Positions 4,208 to 63,364 of a stretch of DNA of 64,000 nucleotides are shown here, one piece after another (position 1 is the stretch's first letter; every line of letters begins with the position of its first letter). The notes under the pieces are model-generated. The model saw only the letters and a list, made by a program, of their open reading frames with translations. It was not told the origin of the DNA and ran no database searches. The DNA comes from Syntrophales bacterium (lineage in GTDB: Bacteria; Desulfobacterota; Syntrophia; Syntrophales; UBA2210). The position numbers and the translations under genes were made by a program. The stretch is taken from positions 512,001-576,000 of the forward strand of contig CAXXNF010000001.1 of assembly GCA_963666365.2 (NCBI GenBank), written 5' to 3'.

Positions 4208-5515
4208 TTATTTCAAGAGGTCAAAGTAATAGCGCATTCGCAACTCGAGGCGAACATCGTTCTGTTTCTCCCCGAACTCGGTATTCCCGGGTCCCGAAAT
4301 AAAACCGGCCTTCAGACGCAGTTCAAGATTGGTGATCCCCGTGTAAAAAATCTCGGGAGACAGGGAAAAGCTTTTATCTTCGATATTGTAGATGCAGGTA
4401 ACCGAGGGGATGAGATAGGGAATGTCAAAGGGCTCTTTCTGAGAAACCCTCAGGTAGAGATAGTCTCTCATCGGGTTTTGCGTTCCGTAGGACCCTTCAG
4501 TTACCGCACGGGCTTTCTGTAGAAAAGTTTGATTGCCGAACAGACGATAGGCGTCGATGCCGTTGTCCACGAGGCCGAAGAATTGGTTCATTTCATCGGC
4601 GGTGAAGCCTGTTCCGCTGTGGAAGTATTCCACAATAAAGGTGGTATCGGTCGTGGTGAGATACCTGATACCGAAAAGAAAATTTTCCACATCCCTGGTT
4701 GATGCGGTAAGAGTGCCGTCGCTCCGGACAACTCTGTGAGCGCTGTCGTCTATGTGGGCCAGCTCTCCGTGGATCTCGAAATTCGAGGTAATATTCCGGG
4801 AAAAATTCATTCCGAATCGGGAGGGCCTGCTGTCCCCCTTCAGGAACATACAATCGATGTCCGTATCGTAGAGAAGAAAGTACAGTTTGCCGGCATAGTT
4901 CAAGGTGTCGCGTTCGCCGAAATCAGTATTGATATGATCGTAGACCGGGAGAATCACCGGCGTGACCGCCATTGCCTTCAGGGGTCCGGAAAAACTCTTT
5001 ATGTAATCCAGCGTGGCAACCACATACCCTTCAAGGGACAATTCCGGGTCATCAGGATTTTTCGGCCGTTCCACAAAGCCGACAGGGTTCCATGCATACC
5101 CCTTCCCCCACCGCAGGGCTTTTTTACCGATACTGATATTCAAACCCGACGAAGGCTTGAGCGACAGATAGCCCTCGTCGAGCACGATGTTCCTGTCGGA
5201 ATCGATGTCCGATTCCGTTGTGTTGATATTCGCGCGGGCGTAGATCTCTGAAAGGCCCTTCGTGTATCTCCCGTCCATCGAGAGTTTAACAAAGTATTCG
5301 TCAATCCAGTTTTTGTCTGCCCTGTCATAAAAATTAAGTCTGTAGAATGCGGCGTCGGCGTCGGTATAGAACACCCTCGGCGCAAGTTCAAGGTACCCCC
5401 CTATGGCATAGGGCTTCTTTTCTATTTCAGACAGATCGAAGGAATACTCGTCCTGCGCCATGGTGCACAGCGGCAGAAGGAGTATGAAGGAAAGAATTCC
5501 GAGTATCGATTTCAT
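4208..5515 (-). CDS. Probable outer-membrane beta-barrel protein
   Basis: Signal peptide, GKK..RWGKGYAWNP motif, alternating beta pattern ending ..RMRYYF; last gene of the ABC/LolA-like operon. Confidence 0.65.
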   Translation of the reverse strand: MKSILGILSFILLLPLCTMAQDEYSFDLSEIEKKPYAIGGYLELAPRVFYTDADAAFYRLNFYDRADKNWIDEYFVKLSMDGRYTKGLSEIYARANINTTESDIDSDRNIVLDEGYLSLKPSSGLNISIGKKALRWGKGYAWNPVGFVERPKNPDDPELSLEGYVVATLDYIKSFSGPLKAMAVTPVILPVYDHINTDFGERDTLNYAGKLYFLLYDTDIDCMFLKGDSRPSRFGMNFSRNITSNFEIHGELAHIDDSAHRVVRSDGTLTASTRDVENFLFGIRYLTTTDTTFIVEYFHSGTGFTADEMNQFFGLVDNGIDAYRLFGNQTFLQKARAVTEGSYGTQNPMRDYLYLRVSQKEPFDIPYLIPSVTCIYNIEDKSFSLSPEIFYTGITNLELRLKAGFISGPGNTEFGEKQNDVRLELRMRYYFDLLK

Positions 5516-5519
5516 GTCA

Positions 5520-6248
5520 TCAGCGAAGTGAGTCGAGATTCGGCATGAAGGTCAGCGTAAAGACCTCGTCGTCGAGTGTCCGCTCTTTCATCTTCGCAAA
5601 GATCATAATGGACTTGTATCCCCTGTAGAGGGGACTGTCCGTTTCGATCACCGACGGTCGCAGGATTCCGTGGCCAAAATCTTTTAACTCTTTAAAATAT
5701 ATGGTTTTCACCAGCATGGACGCTTCTGTGAGGCATTCGATCTTCAGGGGCAGAAGCGCTTCTTTATCGGCCCACATCTTCAACTGATCATAGGCGACGG
5801 CTCTGGTTCTGGCCTTGAGATTAAGGAGATAATTATCCCCCTCCTCCTCTACCGTCTTCACGTCGTATTCGGCCGTGTAGTCAAGCCGGAGTATGTCGGA
5901 ATTGTTGAAGACGCCTCCTACAATCGACTGAAGACTGGTAATGCGGATCGGTTTCCCCACATTCGGAATATAGAGCCACATATTTTCGCCCAGCCTGAGC
6001 GTGCTCCGGCCTTCTTCACTTGCCGGGGAAATGAACAGGGCGGCGACTTTATCTTTTTCCTTCTTGATGGTAAAAAGTACGAATTCCTTCCTTTTGCCGT
6101 TCGGTTCAATATTGATCAGCTTTTTGTACGACTCATAGGAGTCGGGGTTCAAATTCCGATCAATCTGGAGCAGAAGACTGTTTCCGTCCAGGGCAGATGC
6201 CGGAGAGGTAAGAAGGAGCAACACTACAAAAATAATGTATTTTCTCAT
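5520..6248 (-). CDS. Outer membrane lipoprotein-sorting (LolA-like) protein
   Basis: Signal peptide; F.SPASEEG..L....MWLYIP..KPIRI..GG.F.NSD motif of LolA-like family proteins. Confidence 0.85.
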   Translation of the reverse strand: MRKYIIFVVLLLLTSPASALDGNSLLLQIDRNLNPDSYESYKKLINIEPNGKRKEFVLFTIKKEKDKVAALFISPASEEGRSTLRLGENMWLYIPNVGKPIRITSLQSIVGGVFNNSDILRLDYTAEYDVKTVEEEGDNYLLNLKARTRAVAYDQLKMWADKEALLPLKIECLTEASMLVKTIYFKELKDFGHGILRPSVIETDSPLYRGYKSIMIFAKMKERTLDDEVFTLTFMPNLDSLR

Positions 6249-6252
6249 GCCG

Positions 6253-6648
6253 TCACTTTCCTTTTAAGACGCTCTTTACCGCGTCGACGGCGGCGCCCTT
6301 ATATTCTACGTGAGCAATGCCGCGCTCTTTCAGCGCGTTGGCCATTTTCACCCCGAATTGTACGGCGATTGCCATGGTCACGCCTCTTTCGGCGAGAAAG
6401 GCCGCTGCGGAAGGTCCGGCGCCACGGCGTGCATTCTTCTGCGGGTTCTCTATCGTCTCGACAAAGGTGCCATCGCCGTTGAATATCAGATAGTAGGAGC
6501 ATCTGGCGGCCTCGGCGCAGACAACTGCCTGTGCCGTGTTATCGTTTGCCGCAACGGCAATCCTTGTTTCTTCACCTGCAGCGTTACCCATGCCTACACA
6601 GAGCAAAAGGGCTGCAATGCCTGTAAAAAGAAGTAGTTTTTTCATCAC
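6253..6648 (-). CDS. NifB/NifX family protein with N-terminal signal peptide
   Basis: MKKLLLFTGIAALLLCVGMGNAAG then RIAVAA..AARCSYYLIF..ENP..GAGP.AAAFL..GV..IA..FG.KM..AL; start GTG 6648 or ATG 6645. Confidence 0.8.
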   Translation of the reverse strand: MMKKLLLFTGIAALLLCVGMGNAAGEETRIAVAANDNTAQAVVCAEAARCSYYLIFNGDGTFVETIENPQKNARRGAGPSAAAFLAERGVTMAIAVQFGVKMANALKERGIAHVEYKGAAVDAVKSVLKGK

Positions 6649-42085: not shown

Positions 42086-42865
42086 CTATGCCGTATTCGG
42101 CTTGTAATTCATAATCAGCAGTTCATTGGCAGCCTTTCTTTTGTCGCCGCCAGCCGCAGTGTAGGTCGTGGCCACCTCCTCGATGTGAAAATCTTTGTAC
42201 AAATCCCGGATTAATTCAGTGTCGTTGATAGACATAATAAATTGACCTTGAATGATGGCCAGGATATCTCGCAGCACTTTGAAGTCTTTGTGGCTAAATA
42301 TGCCGTCTCCATAGTAGTTTTCAAACCCATGATAAGGCGGATCGATATAAAAAAACGTGTGCGGCTTGTCGAACCTCTTGATTAGGTCAGCATACTGTCT
42401 GTTCTCAATGTAGACGCGTGAAAGACGCAAGTGGGCCGCCGAGAGATCCTCTTCAATCCTAAGCAAATTCAGGCTTGGCGGTCTTGTGGCGCTGATGTTG
42501 AGCGAGGGGCTCTTGATGCGGGCGGCATAGCCGGTTCGGAGAAGGTAATAAAACCTCACTGCCCGTTGGATATCTGTGAGCGATTCCGGGGTTTCCGCCT
42601 TAAAACGTTCGAACTCCTCCCTTGCTACAAGGATCCATTTAAGATATCGAATAAATTCTTCCAGGTGGTTCTTCACAACCCGGTAAAGCGTTACCAGGTC
42701 AGTGTTAATGTCGTTGATGATCTCCACCTTCGATTCTTCCTTCCTGAACAAAAGCCAAGCGGCACCCGCGAAAACTTCACAGTAACAGGTATGTTCCGGT
42801 ATTTTCTCAATTATCCTTTTTGTCAGTAATGATTTTCCACCCATGTACGATAAAAAGCTGTTCAT
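42086..42865 (-). CDS. DNA adenine methyltransferase (D12/Dam class)
   Basis: YMGGKS, EVFAG, INDIN, FYIDPPY; occupies the Mu mom-equivalent terminal position. Confidence 0.93.
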   Translation of the reverse strand: MNSFLSYMGGKSLLTKRIIEKIPEHTCYCEVFAGAAWLLFRKEESKVEIINDINTDLVTLYRVVKNHLEEFIRYLKWILVAREEFERFKAETPESLTDIQRAVRFYYLLRTGYAARIKSPSLNISATRPPSLNLLRIEEDLSAAHLRLSRVYIENRQYADLIKRFDKPHTFFYIDPPYHGFENYYGDGIFSHKDFKVLRDILAIIQGQFIMSINDTELIRDLYKDFHIEEVATTYTAAGGDKRKAANELLIMNYKPNTA

Positions 42866-47975: not shown

Positions 47976-48746
47976 TTATTGCTCCTTTGCCGCGCGCATG
48001 CTCAGTGTCAGCGACCGGCGGACCGGGTCGTAGGGCATGCTGAGGCGGTAGCCGTCGGCGATCTGCACAAAATAGACCTCCGACGGGTGGTTGGTGATGT
48101 CCCAGGCCCAGAAGAAGGGCCTGCCTGCATGGATGTGGCCGTCCCAGGCGGGGCGGAAGTACGTCTCGACCCAGGCGGGCGAGAGGCGCTGAAATTTTGC
48201 GGTGATTGCGATTTCGACGTAGTCCAGGAGGACGCCCAGGAGATGGCCCTGCTGGCTGTATTTAGACGAGGAGAGGGGCGATTCCGGGGCCGGATCGAAT
48301 TCGCCGGAGGGCCATTTCTCCATCGTGAGCCGCACGCCCAGCATGAGGACGGCTGTTTTCGCCGCTGTGGCGGCGGTGACGATCTTGACGCGCCAGTAGC
48401 GGGCGGAGGCGCTGGTGAAGGTTTTCAGGATCGCCCGGTCGCTCGACGGCTCGAAGGCGGCCAGGCGCCCTGTCCAATCGCTGCCGTTGTCGGACGACTC
48501 GACGGAGACGGATGCGGCGGCTGTCCCTAAATTGTGCCCCCGGATGCCCAGGCAGTCGGCTGATTTCGCCTCGCCGCAGTCCACGGTGTAGTATTTTGTC
48601 CCCGCGGCGGCGAACTGGTGCCAGGTGTAGGTGCGCAGGTCCCGGATATTGGCCGCGTAATAGCCTGATGCCGTGTCCGTAGCGGTGGGCGTGCCGTCTT
48701 CGAAACGGTTTTCATACAGTATGATCGGCTTCGCGTTCCAGGCCAT
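47976..48746 (-). CDS. Phage distal tail protein with discoidin-like (F5/8) domain
   Basis: Directly after the tape measure gene; ESSDNGSDW..SARYWRV motif. Confidence 0.6.
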   Translation of the reverse strand: MAWNAKPIILYENRFEDGTPTATDTASGYYAANIRDLRTYTWHQFAAAGTKYYTVDCGEAKSADCLGIRGHNLGTAAASVSVESSDNGSDWTGRLAAFEPSSDRAILKTFTSASARYWRVKIVTAATAAKTAVLMLGVRLTMEKWPSGEFDPAPESPLSSSKYSQQGHLLGVLLDYVEIAITAKFQRLSPAWVETYFRPAWDGHIHAGRPFFWAWDITNHPSEVYFVQIADGYRLSMPYDPVRRSLTLSMRAAKEQ

Positions 48747-52923: not shown

Positions 52924-53411
52924 TGCACCCTCCGCGCCGTTTCATCGGCAATGTCCGAAAGGATGGAGAGCACCCGCGCCATATTGTCGCCGATTGTGTT
53001 TTTGAACATATGCGCCCCCTCCGTTCCGCGGCGCGATATTGCGCGCGCCACCAGGAACGCCACGCTGTCCGCTTCCTTGCCGTCTATTTGCATCGTATGC
53101 ACGACCCAATGCCTGATTGCATCCACCGGCGGGAAATGCGGCTTTGTGCCGGATTCAACCGGTTCTCCGTGGACCGCCGGTGTTCCGAGGATTCCCGTGG
53201 TTGCCCCTTCGACCGATACGACCTGCCCGTAAATGGTATCCCGCAGGTGAATGGGGCCGGCCCCCTCGGGGGTTGCCTCTTTAATCAGCCGCTCAAGAAG
53301 CTGCACCGCTTCGGTAACCTTCGATTCGCGCGCCGCCCGCGATTCTGCCGGGTAGCGCTCCGAAAGCTCCTTGATGCCGGAAAGATCATATTTTATGACC
53401 GTTTCAAACAT
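52920..53411 (-). CDS. HK97 gp10-like neck protein
   Basis: TP..G.HLRD.I, VE.GTKPH.PP...I..W, ARAI...GT....MF; TGATG coupling to the upstream gene. Confidence 0.75.
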   Translation of the reverse strand: MFETVIKYDLSGIKELSERYPAESRAARESKVTEAVQLLERLIKEATPEGAGPIHLRDTIYGQVVSVEGATTGILGTPAVHGEPVESGTKPHFPPVDAIRHWVVHTMQIDGKEADSVAFLVARAISRRGTEGAHMFKNTIGDNMARVLSILSDIADETARRVQ

Positions 53412-54103
53412 CAGCGATATTTCCTCGGATGCGTCATATGGTCTTCGCCCCATGACGGCGTCGAATCCTGGTCGCCGGTTACCGACGCCGCTTTCGTTTG
53501 GCCATCCTTGATGCCCATATGATCGGCATACAACTTCCTGTACCGGGCGGCTCTCGCCGCAAAATCTCGGGATTTGCTCGTATGGTCCACGCTGTCAGCC
53601 TGGATAGTCGAATCCTGATTGCTGGCATAATAAGTGGCCAGCATCTCGCAAAAAACGGAGGCAGCCAGCGCCTGCACCGCCTCTTCGTCGAACCCGGCCA
53701 CCGTGCAGGTGGAATCTGTGCAAGCATGCATGGCCGTGTAGGTCACGCGGATCGATTCCGAAGCCGTGGGCCTGTCTTCCAGGAACCTGATTACCTGGCC
53801 GGAAGGTTTCCGATATATGCGCCATTCGCTGTCATGCAGCATATCGGGCGTCTCGTCGTCGTCATTTACCGGGTATTCGATCGATTTGACGGAGGAAAAT
53901 TCATCGTCCCACGCTTCCAGCCCTGATACCGGATAATCGAATCCGCCGTCGCCGTCCACGTCCTCAACGACAATGCGCGGTTTGTGTTTGGAATGCTCTT
54001 TCACGGCCCTGCCGATCGCCAGAATCTTATCGGCCTCGCCAAGCGGAAACTCTCCATGCACAAACCGCCCGATCGCCGCTATGTAGTCGTCTCGTGTACT
54101 CAT
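53411..54103 (-). CDS. Head-tail connector/adaptor protein
   Basis: Position after the head genes; IEYP, VTYTA.H, D.VD..SK motifs. Confidence 0.55.
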   Translation of the reverse strand: MSTRDDYIAAIGRFVHGEFPLGEADKILAIGRAVKEHSKHKPRIVVEDVDGDGGFDYPVSGLEAWDDEFSSVKSIEYPVNDDDETPDMLHDSEWRIYRKPSGQVIRFLEDRPTASESIRVTYTAMHACTDSTCTVAGFDEEAVQALAASVFCEMLATYYASNQDSTIQADSVDHTSKSRDFAARAARYRKLYADHMGIKDGQTKAASVTGDQDSTPSWGEDHMTHPRKYR

Positions 54104-54113
54104 GATCGCTCCG

Positions 54114-54569
54114 CTAATTCTTAAAAATCCCTAGGGACGACAGCGTAAACGACGTGCCGCCGACGACATATTTCAACCGAATATACTTGCCGAAATTAGT
54201 GATTGCCTGCCGATATTGCCCGGTAGCGGTGATCTGGCTTATGGACGTATGATCGTACCATGTCGAATCGTCGCCGCTGACCTGGATCGTGATATCCAGT
54301 GTGGATGTGCCGGCCTCAGCGATAACGCCTACCAGGATCTGCCCTTCGTAATACGCAGACACTTCAAAACTCGACGAATAACCGGTGGCCGCAGTATACG
54401 TCCCGGACGACAGCATGGTGACGATCCTCGTTGTCCGGTCCGAAGCCCCTGCCGGGACGGCGCTGAACAGCATAATGGCGAACATAACCGCCACAACGGC
54501 CGGAATAAGCCCTGTAAGCCAACATTCTTTCAGGCTACATCTACCTGCGTGTTCTTGCGATTGCCTCAT
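54114..54569 (-). CDS. Phage head-region beta-sandwich protein with signal-peptide-like N-terminus
   Basis: RBS AGGAGG and ATG 54569; hydrophobic LIPAVVAVMFAIMLFSAVPAGA; TLDITIQ.S.D..TWYD..YIRLKYVVGGT domain. Confidence 0.7.
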   Translation of the reverse strand: MRQSQEHAGRCSLKECWLTGLIPAVVAVMFAIMLFSAVPAGASDRTTRIVTMLSSGTYTAATGYSSSFEVSAYYEGQILVGVIAEAGTSTLDITIQVSGDDSTWYDHTSISQITATGQYRQAITNFGKYIRLKYVVGGTSFTLSSLGIFKN

Positions 54570-54626
54570 TTTTGCCCTCCTGGTGCGTTTTTCCCGCCCC
54601 TCGATATCCAATGCTCGAGAGTCCGG

Positions 54627-54657
54627 AAAAACGGGGCGGGGCGAACCCCGCCCGTTT
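54627..54657 (-). terminator. Rho-independent terminator
   Basis: Minus strand GGGCGGGG-TTCG-CCCCGCCC followed by CGTTTTT, directly after the stop at 54661. Confidence 0.75.
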
Positions 54658-54660
54658 GCA

Positions 54661-56214
54661 TTATGGTTTTTCGTATATTTCAACTACGTCGGTGCCGTTG
54701 TCGGCATAAATCGCGGTTTTAGCGTTGGCGATCGTACCGCCGCTCTGCCCCGTAACCTTGAATGTCAAAATCTGGCCGGACGTATTGTTGATAAAAAAGA
54801 TCTTGCCCGCTGTCGCTGCGGGAAGAATCGCGTTGCATCCCCCATCCGCATTCGTCACGATGATATATGTTGCCTGGGCCTCAGATGCCGACAGCGTCCA
54901 GTCCGCATGCCCGCCGCTGTAATCGTGCGATGCCGTGCTGCACACGTCTACTGTGCCGGACGCATCGGGCAACGTGATTGTCCGGTCTGCGGTCGGATCG
55001 GTGGAAGATACGGTCGTTTCGTAAGCGTCGGCCGTCGCGCCCTCGAAGACAAGACCGTTCGATGTGCCCGTCACTGCATTTGCCGCGTCGGCCCCGTTGG
55101 TTGCCAGGCTCGACAGCATCACCGTGCCGCCCGCGTCGGGAAGCACCACCGACCGGTCCGCAGTCGGATCAGTGGAAGATACGGTTGTTTCGTAAGCGTC
55201 GGCCGTCGCGCCCTCGAAGACCAGGCCATTCGATGCGCCCGTCACTGCATTTGCCGCGTCGGCCCCGTTGGTTGCCAGGCTCGACAGCATCACCGTGCCG
55301 CCCGCGTCGGGAAGCACCACCGACCGGTCCGCAGTCGGATCAGTGGAAGATACGGTCGTTTCGTAATCGTTTGCCGTTGCGCCCTCGAAGACCAGGCCGT
55401 TCGATGCGCCTGTTACCGCATTTGCCGCGTCGGCCCCGTTGGTTGCCAGGCTCGACAGCATCACCGTGCCGCCCGCGTCGGGGACCGTCACGGTCCTGTC
55501 TGCGGTCGGGTCGGTGAACGCGACAGTAGTTTCGTAAGCGTTGGCCGTTGCACCCTCCGCTACGAGGCTGTTGGCCGCGCCCCATATGCCCGTTGCGGCG
55601 TCGGGAATGGCGGCGGAGAGAATCGGCACGCCCGATGCATCGGGCAGCGTGATAGTGTTGTCCGCAGTCGGGTCGGTAACGGCAATCGTCGTTTCATAGG
55701 CGTCTGCCGACGCGCCCTCCATGATAATCGGCGATGCGCCGGAGAGCACGCCCAGGGCCGTCAGTGTTGAGCTGTCGAAGTAGTTGCCGCAGTTGACGTA
55801 ATAGTCGGTAGTCGATATGGCGATGCCCACCTGCTGGTCCCAGGATGGCGCGGATTGCGTAATCGCGCCTGCCGTTTCGGACAGATAGCCCGGCTGCCCT
55901 TCGGTCAGCGACGACCATCCGGAAAACACGCCCTGTATGACAATCTCCACGTTGGCGCCCGATGCCGCGTCCTTCCCGGCAACGCCCACGGCGGGCCGGA
56001 GGTCGGAATCGTTTGCATCGGCTGCATACGCGTATCCGTCGGCGTCTTTTATGGCCACCGCCTCTCCGGCGCTTATGGCCTCGCCTGCAACGGCGGATAT
56101 TCGCGTCCATTTAAGCTTTGCATAATAGGCCGCCTGCGCAGGCATCGCGATTAGCGCGATCAGCATCAAGGCGGCGACAATCAGCGCAATATTGAAAATT
56201 CTGATTCTTTTCAT
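54661..56214 (-). CDS. Signal-peptide-bearing head decoration/fibre protein with 57-aa tandem repeats
   Basis: MKRIRIFNIALIVAALMLIALIAMPAQA, then an AGEAI..G.AV capsid-cement-like domain, then five EGA..YETT..TDPTAD motifs. Confidence 0.75.
   Translation of the reverse strand: MKRIRIFNIALIVAALMLIALIAMPAQAAYYAKLKWTRISAVAGEAISAGEAVAIKDADGYAYAADANDSDLRPAVGVAGKDAASGANVEIVIQGVFSGWSSLTEGQPGYLSETAGAITQSAPSWDQQVGIAISTTDYYVNCGNYFDSSTLTALGVLSGASPIIMEGASADAYETTIAVTDPTADNTITLPDASGVPILSAAIPDAATGIWGAANSLVAEGATANAYETTVAFTDPTADRTVTVPDAGGTVMLSSLATNGADAANAVTGASNGLVFEGATANDYETTVSSTDPTADRSVVLPDAGGTVMLSSLATNGADAANAVTGASNGLVFEGATADAYETTVSSTDPTADRSVVLPDAGGTVMLSSLATNGADAANAVTGTSNGLVFEGATADAYETTVSSTDPTADRTITLPDASGTVDVCSTASHDYSGGHADWTLSASEAQATYIIVTNADGGCNAILPAATAGKIFFINNTSGQILTFKVTGQSGGTIANAKTAIYADNGTDVVEIYEKP
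54950..55725. repeat. 171-bp tandem repeat (3 near-identical plus degenerate copies) inside the head fibre gene
   Basis: GTCGGCCCCGTTGGTTGCCAGGCTCGACAGCATCACCGTGCC recurs at 55087, 55258 and 55429; outer boundaries approximate. Confidence 0.9.
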
Positions 56215-56243
56215 GTCATGTCCTCCATCTGAGGTTTTTAAAG

Positions 56244-59036: not shown

Positions 59037-59885
59037 TTACGCCGCGAGATCTTCCGCCGCCCGTTCCCAGTGCTCATGATAGGGCACGGAATAGCACCCG
59101 CAATTAATAGTGTTTTCCGCCGATCCAGCCGGATCGCGGGGATACATTAACTTTTCTCCGCCCACGTCGAACGGCTGGTCCACGTCCCTGATCTGCCCGT
59201 CCGCAGCCAGATGCGACATTCGCGGAACCTTCGCAAAATCGCTGTGCACCCATTGCTTTTTCAACCCCGGAACCGCCTTTGCCGCCTGCTCGCGCCTGGC
59301 CTGGTTCGCTGCCTCAAGCACACGGCCGCATTCGTTGCGCGTAATCGTCTCGGCCCGTGCGGCAATCGATTTGAAAATGCTCTTGTCTTTCAGGTTTTTC
59401 CCCACCGCCTGCATCACTTCGAAGGGCGATTTCCGGCCGAGCAGCCCGCGTGTAAGTTCGGCTGTGATCTTCTTGTTGGCATCCGCCGCAAGCCCCGTCA
59501 CGAGATCGGTGCCGTATCCCTGGAGAATACCGAGCATGGTTGTATCGATTTGCGGCATGGCAACGGCGATGTTCGCGCTCACGGCAGCAGAAACCGGCTC
59601 GTCTACCAGCAAAATGCCCTGGTCCCAGAAATCGAGTTGACGGTCGTTGAGATCCATATTGTACAGCTGCGCATATGACTGCATTGCCCGTTCCACGGCG
59701 CTTTTGAGCTGAGGCAGCCGATACATCTCCCATTCGGTCGATGCCACCGTGGCGGCGATCTCTTTACGCGCCGCCTCCAGAATCCTGATGGAATTTTTTA
59801 CCGCCTCGTTTTCCATCTTGGTCGCCTGTGCGATCAGCTGTTCCACTTTTTTCCTGAATGCCCGCTCCCGCTGAGATTTCGTCAT
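59037..59885 (-). CDS. Minor head protein (Mu gpF / SPP1 gp7 family)
   Basis: RA.TI.R.E, K.W.HS...PR.SH...DGQ..PF..L.YP.DP....TINCGC. Confidence 0.9.
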   Translation of the reverse strand: MTKSQRERAFRKKVEQLIAQATKMENEAVKNSIRILEAARKEIAATVASTEWEMYRLPQLKSAVERAMQSYAQLYNMDLNDRQLDFWDQGILLVDEPVSAAVSANIAVAMPQIDTTMLGILQGYGTDLVTGLAADANKKITAELTRGLLGRKSPFEVMQAVGKNLKDKSIFKSIAARAETITRNECGRVLEAANQARREQAAKAVPGLKKQWVHSDFAKVPRMSHLAADGQIRDVDQPFDVGGEKLMYPRDPAGSAENTINCGCYSVPYHEHWERAAEDLAA

Positions 59886-59887
59886 AA

Positions 59888-61312
59888 CTACCCCAGCAAT
59901 TTATCGTAATCGGTGCCGCCGTCATCCGGCGCACTCTTCGCCGCGTCGATCATTTCCTGTGCGTCGATCTCGTACCCCAGATAGGTTGCCGCATAGGCGA
60001 AGAGCTTCGTTGCCTCGTCTGCGGTGATGAACCGCTCCGATACCGCGATCGAAAGCGCCGTGGTTATCTGCGGCAATCCGTTCATGATCTTTGTGAAATC
60101 CTTTTTGGAAATCTCCGGCATATTGACAGAAAAACCCGCCTCGGCCTGCTTCTCCGACAGGCGGCCGTGAATGACCGCCTGATCCACGACGAACTGAATC
60201 ACGTCGTTCAATAAATCCGTATATTCCCGCTGCCGGTCGTCGAGATCCTTATACGGCACCGCCCCGAAGAGTTCCGCCTCGGTTTGATATGCCTTTCCGC
60301 CCTCGCCGTACCACGACGCCGGACGGCCCGCCGAACCCATGATGAACGATTTCGCCATCTCGAAACCCTGGGTCATGTCGGCCGCTTTCAGGTCCGGCGC
60401 CACTGCTTTCCATTCAACCTGCTCGTTATGCGCACGCATCGCTCCCGGCTGCGGCGCCTGGTTGTCTCGAAGCCATTTGCGGATCTCTTCCTCGTCCATG
60501 CCTTTCAGCAAAACATCCCAGATAAAATTCAGCAAAAACTCGGCACGTTCCAGATAGTTGAATCCGTAACGCTCCATAGAATCTATCCAGTCGAACAATG
60601 TCAGATAGTCGGATCTGCCCCTGGGCGAATTGGGCGGATTGTTGATCGCCATGAAAAATGCATTTCCTACCAAGCGCCCAAACTCCTTCTTTCGCGGGTC
60701 GGCCTCCTCTCGAATGATGGTGTATTTCTCGCCGGGACGTCCCATTCGGCCCTTGAGTTCCACCATCCACACCTGTTCGACATTTCGCGGGTTGACATAT
60801 ACTTCTTTTATCTGAGCCGGATCGATGTAGCGCATCCGAATGAATCCGTTAACCGGGTTGACATCGACAGGCCACAGCTGCTCGCCGAGCACCGAAAGCC
60901 ACAGGCATTTTCGCGGAAACCGCAGGGCCATTTTGTTTTCCCGGTGTTTTAAAAAACGGTCGATAACGCCCTGGACCTCCGGATCGTCCGACTGGACGGT
61001 AAAGGGCTCGCCGAATATAAAGGTCTTGTCTATCGTGGCCATGCGCTTCAGCATGGGCGAGGCGTCCCACATATAATAGGCAACCTCGAACATGCGGTCC
61101 TGCGTGATCGGAGTCAGGTCGCGTCGCGTCACCGGTTCGGCGCCGGTCTTGCGGTAACCTTCATTGTTCGGATCGTAAGACGCCGTAATCGGTACGGCCA
61201 TCTTCGCCCGCCTTACTTCCCCGGCCACCTCGACGGCCACCATTTCGCGGATTTCCTCGTCGGATCTCAGCCCAGGAGCCAGCACGCGCGCTATTTTTTC
61301 CCGAAAACTCAT
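59888..61312 (-). CDS. Portal protein
   Basis: Between terminase and minor head genes; GE, IDP..I, N....RGRSD motifs; ATG 61312 overlaps the terminase TGA. Confidence 0.8.
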   Translation of the reverse strand: MSFREKIARVLAPGLRSDEEIREMVAVEVAGEVRRAKMAVPITASYDPNNEGYRKTGAEPVTRRDLTPITQDRMFEVAYYMWDASPMLKRMATIDKTFIFGEPFTVQSDDPEVQGVIDRFLKHRENKMALRFPRKCLWLSVLGEQLWPVDVNPVNGFIRMRYIDPAQIKEVYVNPRNVEQVWMVELKGRMGRPGEKYTIIREEADPRKKEFGRLVGNAFFMAINNPPNSPRGRSDYLTLFDWIDSMERYGFNYLERAEFLLNFIWDVLLKGMDEEEIRKWLRDNQAPQPGAMRAHNEQVEWKAVAPDLKAADMTQGFEMAKSFIMGSAGRPASWYGEGGKAYQTEAELFGAVPYKDLDDRQREYTDLLNDVIQFVVDQAVIHGRLSEKQAEAGFSVNMPEISKKDFTKIMNGLPQITTALSIAVSERFITADEATKLFAYAATYLGYEIDAQEMIDAAKSAPDDGGTDYDKLLG

Positions 61313-62850
61313 CAATGAAACATCCTCTCCCTGTCGTTTCCGAACCGCCCGAAAAATCCGTCTCGGCCCCTGTTCCCGCGCCCTCCGTTGCCTCCCCACA
61401 CCGTAGGCTTAGGCTCCGGATCTGCACCGACGCAAAGCACAACGCCCTGTGTGGAGGATGCATGCACCGCAAGCCCCTTCGCCCAGAAATGATCAGCATG
61501 CCCCGTTTGTTCCGTGCGTTCGGCATCAAACCGGAAATGCTTAGTAGTTGTGGCGTATTTCTTTACCGAATGCAGTGAATTGCGTATTGTGTTCGATGCG
61601 GGGATCACACTGCCGCGATCCTCGAAATTCCTTTTCAGTCCGACTGCAAGCGCCTCCTTATTCCCAGTGCTGAAATCGATTCCTTCTACCTTCGAGCCGA
61701 AAAGCGTCTGTGCGTTTTCCGCCAACTGCTCGCCGATTCCCGTTTTATCCATGCAGGCGCGCCGCATCCGTTTCAACGTCAGCAAGGTGTGGAGCACTTG
61801 CTCCTGCACAAAGAACGGCTGTTTTTTCAGTTCGATCACGGCAAGCGAATATAGGACGTTTTGTATTTTCTGATCCAGCCAGATAACGGAAAAATCGCGA
61901 TGGCGCCCTATATCCATTCCTGCAAATAGGTCGCCTGAAAACTCCACATTTGCGAGTGCATGCAGGGGCAGAGGTGGGGAAATCTTGGTGCGTTTGAATT
62001 CATAAAAGTTAATTTCAGCCGCCTTAATCAGTATTTCCGCCCATACCGGCGTCATGACCAGTTTCACATCCTCGACAGAGGAAATCAGCTCATGCGTCAA
62101 AAACGCCGATACCTCATCGGAGGGAATGCATTCGTATTCCTCGGCCCATGCATCGTCGTCGTTCAGGGCGAGACGCAGATCCTCGGGATCGCAAGGATTC
62201 CCCTCGTCGTCTCTCAGATCCAGTCCCATTTCAACGGCCTGATAGATGTTGACGAAGTGTTTCGACCAGCCGCCTTTTTCGCCCAGGAATTCGTGATCGC
62301 GTCCGTTGAATCGCTGCAGCGTGGGCGCACCGAAAAAGAGCTCGTAAAATTTATTTGTCTTCCCCTTGAAAGTAGATATGATCCTGATTTTATAGCCGCG
62401 GGTAACCGTGGGAAAGAGAGCTTTCCAGATTTCACGGCTGTCGCGATGCAAGGCGAATTCGTCAAGAAGGATGTTTGCCGACCATCCGCGGGCCGTGTCG
62501 GGATTGGCCGGTAGGCCTACGATGCGGGATCCGTTGGGAAAGATTATCTCCAACATCCGGTATTTCGTATCCTTGTCGACCCAGTAATCTTCTTCCAGCT
62601 CCTCGACGGCCCGGCCGATGGCCCTCGCGTGCATGGCGGCCTTGCCCATGAGTTCTTTCGATTGTCGCTCTCCCGCAGAAAGAAAAACCCACATAGTCTT
62701 TTGTTCCACGCAGTCAAAGACGGCCTCGAGGGCCGTGCCGAAGGACTTCCCTCCCTGACGGGTGATCACGCCTATTTTGAATCGGCTTTTGTCCGTTACC
62801 CAGGTCCCTTGATAGTCGGTCAGGGGTATGAGGGGGCTAGAAGATGCCAT
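61312..62850 (-). CDS. Terminase large subunit (Mu gp28-like)
   Basis: RQGGKSF, SAGERQS, LPANPDTARG, LDEFA, GMDIGR..D, D.TGIG, GHADHFWA. Confidence 0.93.
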   Translation of the reverse strand: MASSSPLIPLTDYQGTWVTDKSRFKIGVITRQGGKSFGTALEAVFDCVEQKTMWVFLSAGERQSKELMGKAAMHARAIGRAVEELEEDYWVDKDTKYRMLEIIFPNGSRIVGLPANPDTARGWSANILLDEFALHRDSREIWKALFPTVTRGYKIRIISTFKGKTNKFYELFFGAPTLQRFNGRDHEFLGEKGGWSKHFVNIYQAVEMGLDLRDDEGNPCDPEDLRLALNDDDAWAEEYECIPSDEVSAFLTHELISSVEDVKLVMTPVWAEILIKAAEINFYEFKRTKISPPLPLHALANVEFSGDLFAGMDIGRHRDFSVIWLDQKIQNVLYSLAVIELKKQPFFVQEQVLHTLLTLKRMRRACMDKTGIGEQLAENAQTLFGSKVEGIDFSTGNKEALAVGLKRNFEDRGSVIPASNTIRNSLHSVKKYATTTKHFRFDAERTEQTGHADHFWAKGLAVHASSTQGVVLCVGADPEPKPTVWGGNGGRGNRGRDGFFGRFGNDRERMFH

Positions 62851-63364
62851 AGATCTCCTCTTTGATGATTCGCATCGTTTCGGGGTCTAGCGAGTTCTTG
62901 GCCGTTTTCTTTTCTATCGTTGCCAACGCCTTTTCGGCTTTCTTACGCGCCTCCGCCTGCCACTTTTTCTGCTGTACCGAGGCCCGGCTCAAGCGGGCCA
63001 CCATGACCCCCATCTTGGGGAATATTTTTGAAAATTCCTCAGGGTCCTCATCTTGCAGCCGTATCAGCACGTCGAATGCCCGTTCCTGTACAAGCCGTAT
63101 CAAGGCGTCATTCATTGCGCCCTCTTCGTCGCCGACAACGCTCGCGATCGCCTTCGCCTGTTCCGTGGCCACCTTGATCTGGGCCAGGCGTTCTTCAAAT
63201 TGCTGGCCGTACCGGTGAACCGCCGATCTCGATATTTCGTAGCCCTGTTCGGCCAGCCACTCCGCAAGCCCCTGATAATCGGAAAAACAGCTTGTCACCA
63301 GGCGTTGGTTCAATTCTTCCCTTATCTCTTCGGGAAGCTGTGTTACGGCTGATCTCTGCGGCAT
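62837..63364 (-). CDS. Mu gp27-like (DUF3486) putative small terminase
   Basis: S.V..LP.EIR..L...L....FS.Y..LAEWL...GY.ISRSAVHRYG..I.EEIYGI. Confidence 0.85.
   Translation of the reverse strand: MPQRSAVTQLPEEIREELNQRLVTSCFSDYQGLAEWLAEQGYEISRSAVHRYGQQFEERLAQIKVATEQAKAIASVVGDEEGAMNDALIRLVQERAFDVLIRLQDEDPEEFSKIFPKMGVMVARLSRASVQQKKWQAEARKKAEKALATIEKKTAKNSLDPETMRIIKEEIYGIF

Follow-up and report, generated by a model that had tools for sequence, protein, structure and literature searches.

The assembly of tailed phages, as textbooks present it, takes place wholly in the cytoplasm. The proteins that decorate the finished head fit this scheme: the known gpD-type members are, to our knowledge, synthesized and attached to the capsid inside the cytoplasm and lack a signal peptide, and we know of no export signal on gp8.5, the head fiber of phi29. 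Phage late proteins that carry N-terminal signals and use the Sec pathway of the host do exist, namely the coat proteins of filamentous phages and the Sec-exported or signal-arrest-release (SAR) endolysins. Among exported endolysins, PMC6834076 names those of fOg44 and P1. Here, we describe two adjacent genes, A and B, from a prophage in a 64,000-nucleotide stretch of a Syntrophales bacterium genome ("the window" denotes that whole stretch). Both genes follow the major capsid gene, both encode proteins with virion-type folds, and both begin with a presequence of the export type. The reading that best fits these features, unproven and in our estimate evenly poised between right and wrong, is that the two proteins would be exported by Sec and would join capsids at lysis.

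Export-type presequences and their conservation

What do the two presequences look like? A starts with MKRIRIFNIALIVAALMLIALIAMPAQA followed by AYYAK. Its n-region is basic (K2, R3, and R5), its hydrophobic core runs to about 18 uncharged residues with a best nine-residue Kyte-Doolittle mean of 3.34, and the site is AQA before A. B, taken from the ATG at 54569, starts with MRQSQEHAGRCSLKECWLTGLIPAVVAVMFAIMLFSAVPAGA followed by SDRTT, with an n-region that holds R2, R10, and K14, a core of about 21 uncharged residues (nine-residue mean, 3.03), and the site AGA before S. A longer alternative open reading frame (ORF) that opens with TTG would extend B up to 54683 and overlap the end of A; the ATG is the best start. 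A preliminary description of this DNA had called the first presequence a textbook export signal just after the capsid gene and the second an export-type signal behind a longer n-region, each with a good ribosome-binding site. Sequence, coordinates, and the GGAGGA before A all bear this out, as do the sequence of B and the AGGAGGG before it. In the AlphaFold2 (AF2) model of A, residues 2 to 23 form an N-terminal helix, after which the predicted local distance difference test (pLDDT) score drops below 50 at residues 28 to 33, the predicted cleavage site; in the model of B, the helix spans residues 13 to 36. Neither a lipobox Cys at +1 nor a conserved twin-arginine (RR) motif is present in A, B, or the N termini of their homologs, where +1 is A, Y, or V for A and D, G, E, A, or S for B. 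Lipoprotein and Tat signals were therefore both rejected.

The presequences were scored with a crude heuristic that asks for an uncharged nine-residue core with a mean Kyte-Doolittle value of ≥2.0, K or R before it, and a small-residue -3/-1 site after it. Across 21 ORFs of the prophage (42086-63680), only A (3.3) and B (3.0) have a strong N-terminal core together with both other features; the Dam methylase, a 590-residue tail-fiber protein, and the tape measure have weak internal stretches only (2.1 to 2.4). Three host ORFs served as positive examples. These lie consecutively in the window (4208-6648, minus strand; 435, 242, and 131 residues), encode clear signal peptides, and adjoin a membrane protein and an ATPase-like ORF.

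Are the signals kept in other phages? Family A consists of the 100 proteins returned with residues 1 to 160 of A (E values from 3e-53 to 6e-33), among 3314 candidates. Family B consists of 132 proteins returned among 159 candidates, of which 120 were listed, including the window's own, leaving 119 homologs. The heuristic is passed by 94 of the 100 proteins in family A and by 105 of the 119 homologs listed for family B, an outcome that the preliminary description had named as one that would support its reading; the failures are mostly entries that look cut at the N terminus and begin inside the signal. In nearly all homologs, the N terminus has basic residues, a hydrophobic stretch, and an AxA right before the conserved mature start, often with a helix-breaking Pro or Gly ahead of the site. 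Pairwise identity is 24% in the presequence versus 62% in the mature domain for A and 21% versus 71% for B. When family B is anchored on its invariant DRKT start, the -1 residue is Ala in 110 of 115 proteins (Gly in 3, Tyr in 1, and Cys in 1), and the -3 residue is small or aliphatic (A, V, G, S, L, I, C, or T) in all 115. In family A, a -3/-1 site lies 10 to 15 residues before the invariant AGE motif in 99 of 100 proteins, though the script takes the site nearest the domain, and this count thus leaves the exact cleavage position unfixed. Being conserved across homologs, the signal goes far beyond chance, and the retention of its features despite sequence turnover, together with a conserved peptidase-type site, is what a functional cleavable signal predicts. 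The fixed AxA site also speaks against a plain membrane anchor, which would need no such site. These patterns strongly support the view that the presequences of A and B are genuine, selected export signals on virion-type folds.

How widely is the arrangement shared? The related loci number 63, of which 57 are viral contigs and 6 are contigs of metagenome-assembled genomes (Deltaproteobacteria, Syntrophorhabdus, Smithellaceae, and Syntrophobacterales). Both genes are complete in 49 of the 63, and both bear the signal in 49 of 49. At another seven, a contig end cuts or excludes one gene, and the gene that could be scored passed. The remaining loci comprise two that failed the heuristic (L009 and L057), three of a sister lineage (L054 to L056), and two that yielded no ORF for B (L049 and L052). 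The gene order portal, Mu F-like head morphogenesis protein (MuF), small gene, capsid, A, B, a gene of 230 residues (g230), and neck is shared by the 57 viral contigs examined. No cultured relative emerged, as tblastn searches of 50,697 phage records with the N-terminal domain of A and with B found nothing at an E value of ≤1e-3.

Relatives that do not carry the signal exist for both domains. A search with the mature N-terminal domain of A against 1.84 billion representatives returned 1494 proteins at an E value of ≤1e-3; among the best 150 of these, 75 have a presequence, 34 start at the domain and have none (a few look truncated), 29 have the domain internally, and 12 are of other kinds. For B, the nearest Atlas clusters are viral proteins of 109 to 114 residues, which is the size of B minus its signal, and in the sister lineage, made up of more distant viral contigs, the B-like protein after the capsid gene starts right at the mature domain. 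Given the co-occurrence in 49 of 49 loci and these signal-less relatives, the signal is, as far as the sequence comparisons reach, a trait that the lineage acquired and retained on head proteins that are otherwise cytoplasmic.

An insert of the moron or lysogenic-conversion type was considered and rejected. The presence of the genes is not patchy, and their GC content is ordinary (0.55 to 0.56 in A and B, as in their neighbors, with 0.64 to 0.65 in the repeats only). A scan for the sigma-70 consensus found no promoter-like site on the coding (minus) strand. A single terminator-like hairpin follows A.

Several loci vary in gene content around A and B. The sister lineage has a tandem duplication of the B-like gene (112 to 118 residues, then 203 to 224 residues), again with no presequence, and a gene of 305 to 332 residues that has no similarity to A lies between the capsid and B-like genes. 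Some relatives (L033:6398-12381, L053:6512-11749, and L046:7592-10267) have a hot spot in the slot that follows B, with up to five extra genes whose products have signal-peptide-like N termini, some with beta-helix, Laminin_G_3 (ConA-like lectin), or polysaccharide deacetylase domains. Two loci (L026:4165-5707 and L061) have two consecutive A-type genes, of 324 and 174 residues, both with hydrophobic N termini. The shorter protein has a weak match to Phage_cement_2 (E = 9.3e-4), and the pair looks like a duplicated decoration gene. At L051:5101-5697, a tetratricopeptide repeat (TPR) protein of 198 residues sits between the A and B homologs, in the place of the Wzy_C gene (described below).

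Folds of the mature proteins and a membrane enzyme in relatives

The mature part of A had been described as a capsid-cement-like domain plus fiber repeats, and family matches and structure searches both uphold this picture. Residues 41 to 135 match the Pfam family Phage_cement_2 (PF09956) at 26.4 bits versus a cutoff of 24, a small margin, and there is a weak match to phrog_122, "head decoration" (E = 0.0038). The repeats match phrog_38058, "tail fiber protein" (E = 9.7e-32). The AF2 model has a mean pLDDT of 67.8 and is confident at residues 35 to 145 and 430 to 517 and poor in the repeats. Structure searches were run with VIA, scored as Z, and with Foldseek. For residues 34 to 150, the matches are almost exclusively decoration proteins of solved capsids: HFTV1 (8qsy_JI; Z = 12.3, root mean square deviation of 2.7, 110 residues aligned), Adjutor (8saj_3; 11.0), Patience (8giu_1; 10.6), XM1 and Pam3 (9.6; 8hdt_G among the matches), and FCWL1 and Sf11 (9.0), with further matches to E217, YSD1, TW1, and P23-45 and to lambda gpD (7vii_H; 5.7). 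The N-terminal base of the phi29 head fiber gp8.5 (6qyy) also matches, with a Z score of 7.7, a Foldseek E value of 2.8e-3, and a template modeling (TM) score of 0.58. At the other end, residues 425 to 517 match the C terminus of the Solidus tailspike (Z = 10.2), CBA120 TSP4 (8.2), and the Pa223 capsid spike (7.7). As modeled, A looks like a head fiber with a decoration-type base, similar to that of phi29. Among relatives, A ranges from about 150 to 604 residues in length, and its repeat part seems to expand, shrink, and get swapped freely.

What about B? Its model has a mean pLDDT of 88.8 and places an eight-strand jelly roll at residues 47 to 150, which agrees with the small beta sandwich named in the preliminary description. 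The leading VIA matches tie: XepA (Z = 12.0), YomS (11.6), the BPP-1 cement protein (3j4u_H; 11.5, with 104 residues aligned at 18% identity), and the Bacillus Ena pilin (11.1). Capsid chains of Carin1, 7-7-1, and KHP40 match at Z scores of 8.7 to 9.2. In BFVD, B resembles many small uncharacterized phage proteins, and in one Atlas neighbor cluster, PF27453 XepA is found on 23% of members (score, 0.90). Against Pfam DUF6385 (PF19912), B scores 24.5 bits, under the cutoff of 26.8; some B homologs carry a precomputed PF19912 label, and B is likely related to DUF6385, though the window protein scores under the threshold. Scans of A and B against NCBIfam gave no match. The role of B is ambiguous, in that its modeled fold alone fits the BPP-1 cement and the exported XepA equally. 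A comparison with capsid cement and decoration folds, proposed earlier for both proteins, thus came out positive for A, whereas for B the cement match ties with the non-capsid XepA.

Why would head proteins be exported at all? Relatives of this phage offer a lead. Of the 51 loci with both A and B, 17 have a polytopic membrane ORF of 365 to 406 residues between the two on the same strand, often abutting its neighbors or overlapping them by 4 nucleotides. Sixteen of these ORFs come from viral loci within L002 to L053, and all 16, when scanned, match Pfam Wzy_C, the O-antigen ligase family (E ≤1.3e-5), with 12 above the 31.7-bit cutoff. The seventeenth, at L064, was assigned by size and predicted transmembrane segments only. 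The ORFs share a loop, GRGLGSW..IFPLL.SGD, and a motif, QAHNEY..FE.G, in which the His is nearly invariant. Their products gave no NCBIfam match and no PDB sequence match at an E value of ≤1 that would assign them to a subfamily. Wzy_C enzymes such as WaaL, PglL, and TfpO move glycans from an undecaprenyl carrier to their acceptors at the periplasmic side of the membrane; for TfpO, the acceptor is a C-terminal serine of pilin. The Wzy_C gene between A and B, judged by sequence, points to periplasmic modification in those relatives, and the position of a transferase that faces the periplasm, between two exported proteins, is independent support for a module that works outside the cytoplasm.

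The loci with a Wzy_C-type ORF have a short A, consisting of the signal and the decoration domain (about 158 residues). At the C termini of the short A proteins is a conserved tail, P-x-S/T-x-G-A-G-Y. A long, fiber-bearing A is found at 28 loci, none of which (0 of 28) has the Wzy_C-type gene; six loci have a short A and no such gene. This distribution suggests that the glycan and the protein fiber may be alternative head ornaments. The window's phage has the fiber version of A. It has no Wzy_C gene, the only match in the genome being on the other contig.

A possible route through the periplasm and its rivals

Building on what was observed, namely presequences conserved among homologs, virion-type folds, a shared gene order, and lysis genes, we infer a route of export, cleavage, and attachment after lysis, along with a reason for it. 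A and B would be translated together with the capsid genes and exported by Sec through the inner membrane. Signal peptidase I would then cleave A before AYYAK and B before SDRTT, and both would fold in the periplasm, where in some relatives they would also be modified. Contact with the expanded, DNA-filled capsids assembled in the cytoplasm would come only once endolysin-based lysis breaks the envelope. The gpD-like N-terminal domain of A would seat itself on the capsid lattice, displaying the repeat fiber and the tip, and B would bind as a second, jelly-roll protein of the cement type. The likely purpose of such a detour would be a maturation step that the cytoplasm does not permit. For a third of the relatives, that step would be glycan transfer by a phage enzyme of the O-antigen ligase family; the window's phage has a protein fiber on A instead of the gene for this enzyme. 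Late addition from outside is physically possible, as gpD can be added to lambda capsids in vitro. An endolysin gene (at L065:2122-2574, where L065 is the region that continues past the window) and a lipoprotein gene lie upstream of the terminase, the former about 10 kb from gene B, and together they argue for release of the prophage by lysis.

How firmly can the parts of this scheme be held? A leans towards virion association, since its N-terminal domain matches decoration proteins and since A and B are core, syntenic, of ordinary composition, and not moron-like. The best explanation takes the two as late, core head-module proteins of a Mu-like, siphophage-type prophage lineage in diderm hosts of the Desulfobacterota type, with functional Sec-type signal peptides and the route of export and attachment at lysis given above, and to this whole we would commit about half of our belief. 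The broader proposal, in which a widespread, uncultured tailed-phage lineage finishes its capsid outside the cytoplasm with Sec-secreted A and B, periplasmic glycan modification in many members, and attachment at lysis, is more tentative and falls somewhat short of an even chance.

Might the proteins be exported and never join a virion? The preliminary description had offered, beside attachment at lysis, a second reading of this sort in which virion folds are redeployed on the lysogen surface. The site of action would then be the cell envelope, during infection or in the lysogen, where B could be a XepA-like helper in lysis or envelope remodeling and A could be a surface or periplasmic fiber that serves in adhesion, masks receptors, or excludes superinfecting phages. 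Late operons that encode exported proteins are familiar from lambda (Lom and Bor), and the signal-bearing beta-helix, lectin-like, and deacetylase genes of L033, L053, and L046 also fit a secreted, glycan-active set. The best folds of B include XepA and YomS, and XepA, according to PMC6834076, is exported past the membrane during PBSX development and is missing from mature particles. A points the other way, with its N-terminal domain, the conserved part of the protein, matching capsid-bound decoration proteins almost exclusively. Moreover, A and B are present at every related locus that spans the region, and neither their composition nor any promoter-like site marks them as morons; B resides in the head module, far from the endolysin gene, unlike xepA in its lysis cassette; and signal-less relatives of both proteins fill the same head-module slot. 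These counterpoints weigh more for A than for B. A purely non-virion role for the pair is, on this evidence, unlikely, if well within the range of serious possibilities.

Two further alternatives dispute the cleavage or the presequence itself. The hydrophobic segments could be something other than cleaved export signals, namely signal anchors, membrane tethers, or propeptides that the prohead protease removes; they would either keep the proteins at the inner membrane up to lysis or serve in cytoplasmic assembly. Long cores modeled as single helices, the n-regions of 20 to 50 residues that are frequent among B homologs, and the fusion of the capsid gene to a protease would all suit this idea. 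It sits poorly with an AxA-type site kept at a fixed distance in both families (Ala at -1 in B, the site before AGE in A) and with the helix-breaking Pro or Gly ahead of that site, a combination that is the signature of a signal peptidase I substrate and not of an anchor; nor do we know of a prohead protease that recognizes AxA-type sites. We consider this alternative improbable. Or the true starts could lie downstream of the hydrophobic segments, leaving ordinary cytoplasmic decoration proteins and an annotation artifact. A does have Met codons further in, at residues 17 and 24, and some database homologs (e.g., P0061, P0134, and P0206) start in or after the hydrophobic segment. Yet each upstream ATG follows a strong Shine-Dalgarno sequence, which the internal Met codons lack, and those codons are not conserved; the short entries come mostly from short contigs; and sequence divergence has left the reading frame of the presequence and its n-h-c features intact in nearly all homologs. 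Downstream starts were rejected on these grounds, and an artifact of this kind is very improbable.

Sec export followed by attachment at lysis has difficulties of its own. Hydrophobic cores of about 18 (A) and 21 (B) residues are on the long side for Sec signals, and the n-region of B is long as well, which leaves room for an uncleaved signal anchor. The structural tie of B with XepA and YomS counts here as well, given the absence of XepA from mature PBSX particles (PMC6834076). The window's phage lacks the Wzy_C gene, and the reason proposed for export thus has no direct bearing on it. Disulfide formation, tried as a general reason for export, was rejected: mature A proteins with zero to six cysteines number 6, 26, 38, 14, 10, 1, and 4, respectively, which shows no bias for even numbers, and mature B proteins mostly have none (83 with zero, 33 with one, and 4 with two). 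Finally, the route would require capsids of this uncultured lineage to be stable or infectious before decoration.

The prophage and its place among known systems

The prophage that houses A and B is Mu-like, transposable, and complete looking, spans about 37 kb, and has its own lysis genes. Its parts are listed in Table 1; gene identities come from family-profile scans (Pfam and PHROG), and all genes of the region are on the minus strand. Directly upstream of A is the ORF in which the prohead protease and the major capsid protein are fused. This arrangement of both in a single ORF of 797 residues is kept at related loci. Downstream of B, g230, which had no family match in the Pfam and PHROG scans, and a Neck1-like gene close the head module, and genes for the tail tube, the tape measure, and the tail tip or fibers come after. 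A protein of 256 residues encoded after the tape measure (window 47976-48746, minus strand) has an F5/8 type C (discoidin) domain (30.1 bits) and is probably a glycan-binding distal tail protein. The 19 kb past the window (L065) hold, besides the endolysin and lipoprotein genes, those for Gam, transposition protein B, a transposase (A) of 742 residues, and the repressor.

Table 1. Coordinates of genes A and B, their parts, and the surrounding prophage genes (window positions unless a locus is named)
Feature	Position	Strand	Remarks
Gene A, 517 residues	54661-56214	-	ORF; signal peptide, cement domain, 57-residue repeats, C-terminal tip
Ribosome-binding site of A, GGAGGA	56221-56226	-	6 nucleotides before the ATG of A
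Predicted Sec signal peptide of A, MKRIRIFNIALIVAALMLIALIAMPAQA, residues 1-28	56131-56214	-	Cleavage predicted before AYYAK
Decoration domain of A, gpD-like (beta-tulip), residues 29-150	55765-56130	-	pLDDT >90; structure matches
Fiber shaft of A, 171-bp (57-residue) tandem repeats	54982-55557	-	3.4 copies, 90% matches; low pLDDT
C-terminal beta-sandwich tip of A, residues 425-517	54664-54942	-	pLDDT 73-94
Terminator-like hairpin, 8 G-C pairs then CGTTTTTCCG	54634-54653	-	Directly past the stop codon of A; consensus match only
Gene B, 151 residues	54114-54569	-	ORF; long presequence and 109-residue jelly-roll domain
Ribosome-binding site of B, AGGAGGG	54575-54581	-	5 nucleotides before the ATG of B
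Predicted signal peptide of B, residues 1-42, ends VPAGA	54444-54569	-	Cleavage predicted before SDRTT
Prohead protease and major capsid fusion, 797 residues	56312-58705	-	Phage_capsid_4, E = 4.7e-26; phrog_4523 "major head and protease protein," E = 3.6e-39
118-residue gene	Between MuF and the capsid fusion	-	ORF
Mu F-like head morphogenesis protein (MuF)	59037-59885	-	Family scan
Portal	59888-61399	-	Family scan
Large terminase	61312-62850	-	Family scan
Mu gp27-like small terminase subunit	62837-63364	-	Family scan
230-residue gene (g230), family unknown	53411-54103	-	Synteny; directly downstream of B, then Neck1-like gene
Dam-type methylase	42086-42865	-	Prophage end, beside host metabolism (CoA-enzyme) genes
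Prophage	Window 42086-64000 and L065:1-11712 (G000:C1:575001-586712)		Repressor to Dam methylase

What would follow if A and B did take the route proposed here? The outer head parts of some phages would pass through the periplasm, contrary to the textbook account. Tailed phages would have a two-compartment assembly route that includes a step dependent on lysis and possibly a periplasmic glycosylation of the capsid, neither of them described for such phages. Chemistry confined to the periplasm, such as the transfer of lipid-linked glycans, would become accessible for coating heads. Annotation would change for signal-bearing genes in virion modules, which are usually dismissed as morons or membrane proteins. 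Finally, decoration proteins that are matured or glycosylated in the periplasm would be of interest for phage display and engineering.

The preliminary description knew of no system of this kind, and a search of open papers and preprints (the open literature being what was covered) agrees: as far as the text of these sources was available, they describe no secretion signals on tailed-phage decoration proteins and no phage enzyme of the O-antigen ligase type acting on capsid parts. How, then, do A and B compare with their closest counterparts? With the gpD-type decoration proteins (Phage_cement_2; lambda gpD, HFTV1, Adjutor, Patience, Pam3, TW1, and YSD1), A shares the fold (Z scores from 12.3 to 5.7) and the gene position after the capsid, and it adds a conserved Sec-type presequence before the domain and a fiber after it. 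Like gp8.5 of phi29, it has an N-terminal capsid base of the decoration fold that carries a distal fiber, whereas its shaft is made of 57-residue repeats as in the tail-fiber and baseplate PHROGs and its tip is tailspike-like. B shares the jelly roll and a head-module place near the capsid gene with the cement protein of the Bordetella phage BPP-1 (3j4u chain H) but has a signal peptide, and the match ties with non-capsid jelly rolls.

These jelly rolls, XepA of PBSX and YomS of SPbeta, are the top structural matches of B, and XepA, going by PMC6834076, is a precedent for an exported jelly roll among phage late proteins. Both are pentamers from the lysis cassettes of Bacillus prophages, whereas B belongs to the head module of a phage of diderms and has a classical, cleavable-looking signal. 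The coats of filamentous phages and the exported endolysins are, respectively, assembled at the membrane and enzymes of lysis, whereas A and B are decoration-type proteins of a tailed phage. The membrane protein encoded between A and B in relatives shares a Wzy_C match and the His loop motif with WaaL, PglL, and TfpO; the window's phage lacks its gene. What is new in this comparison is the routing; the parts themselves belong to known families.

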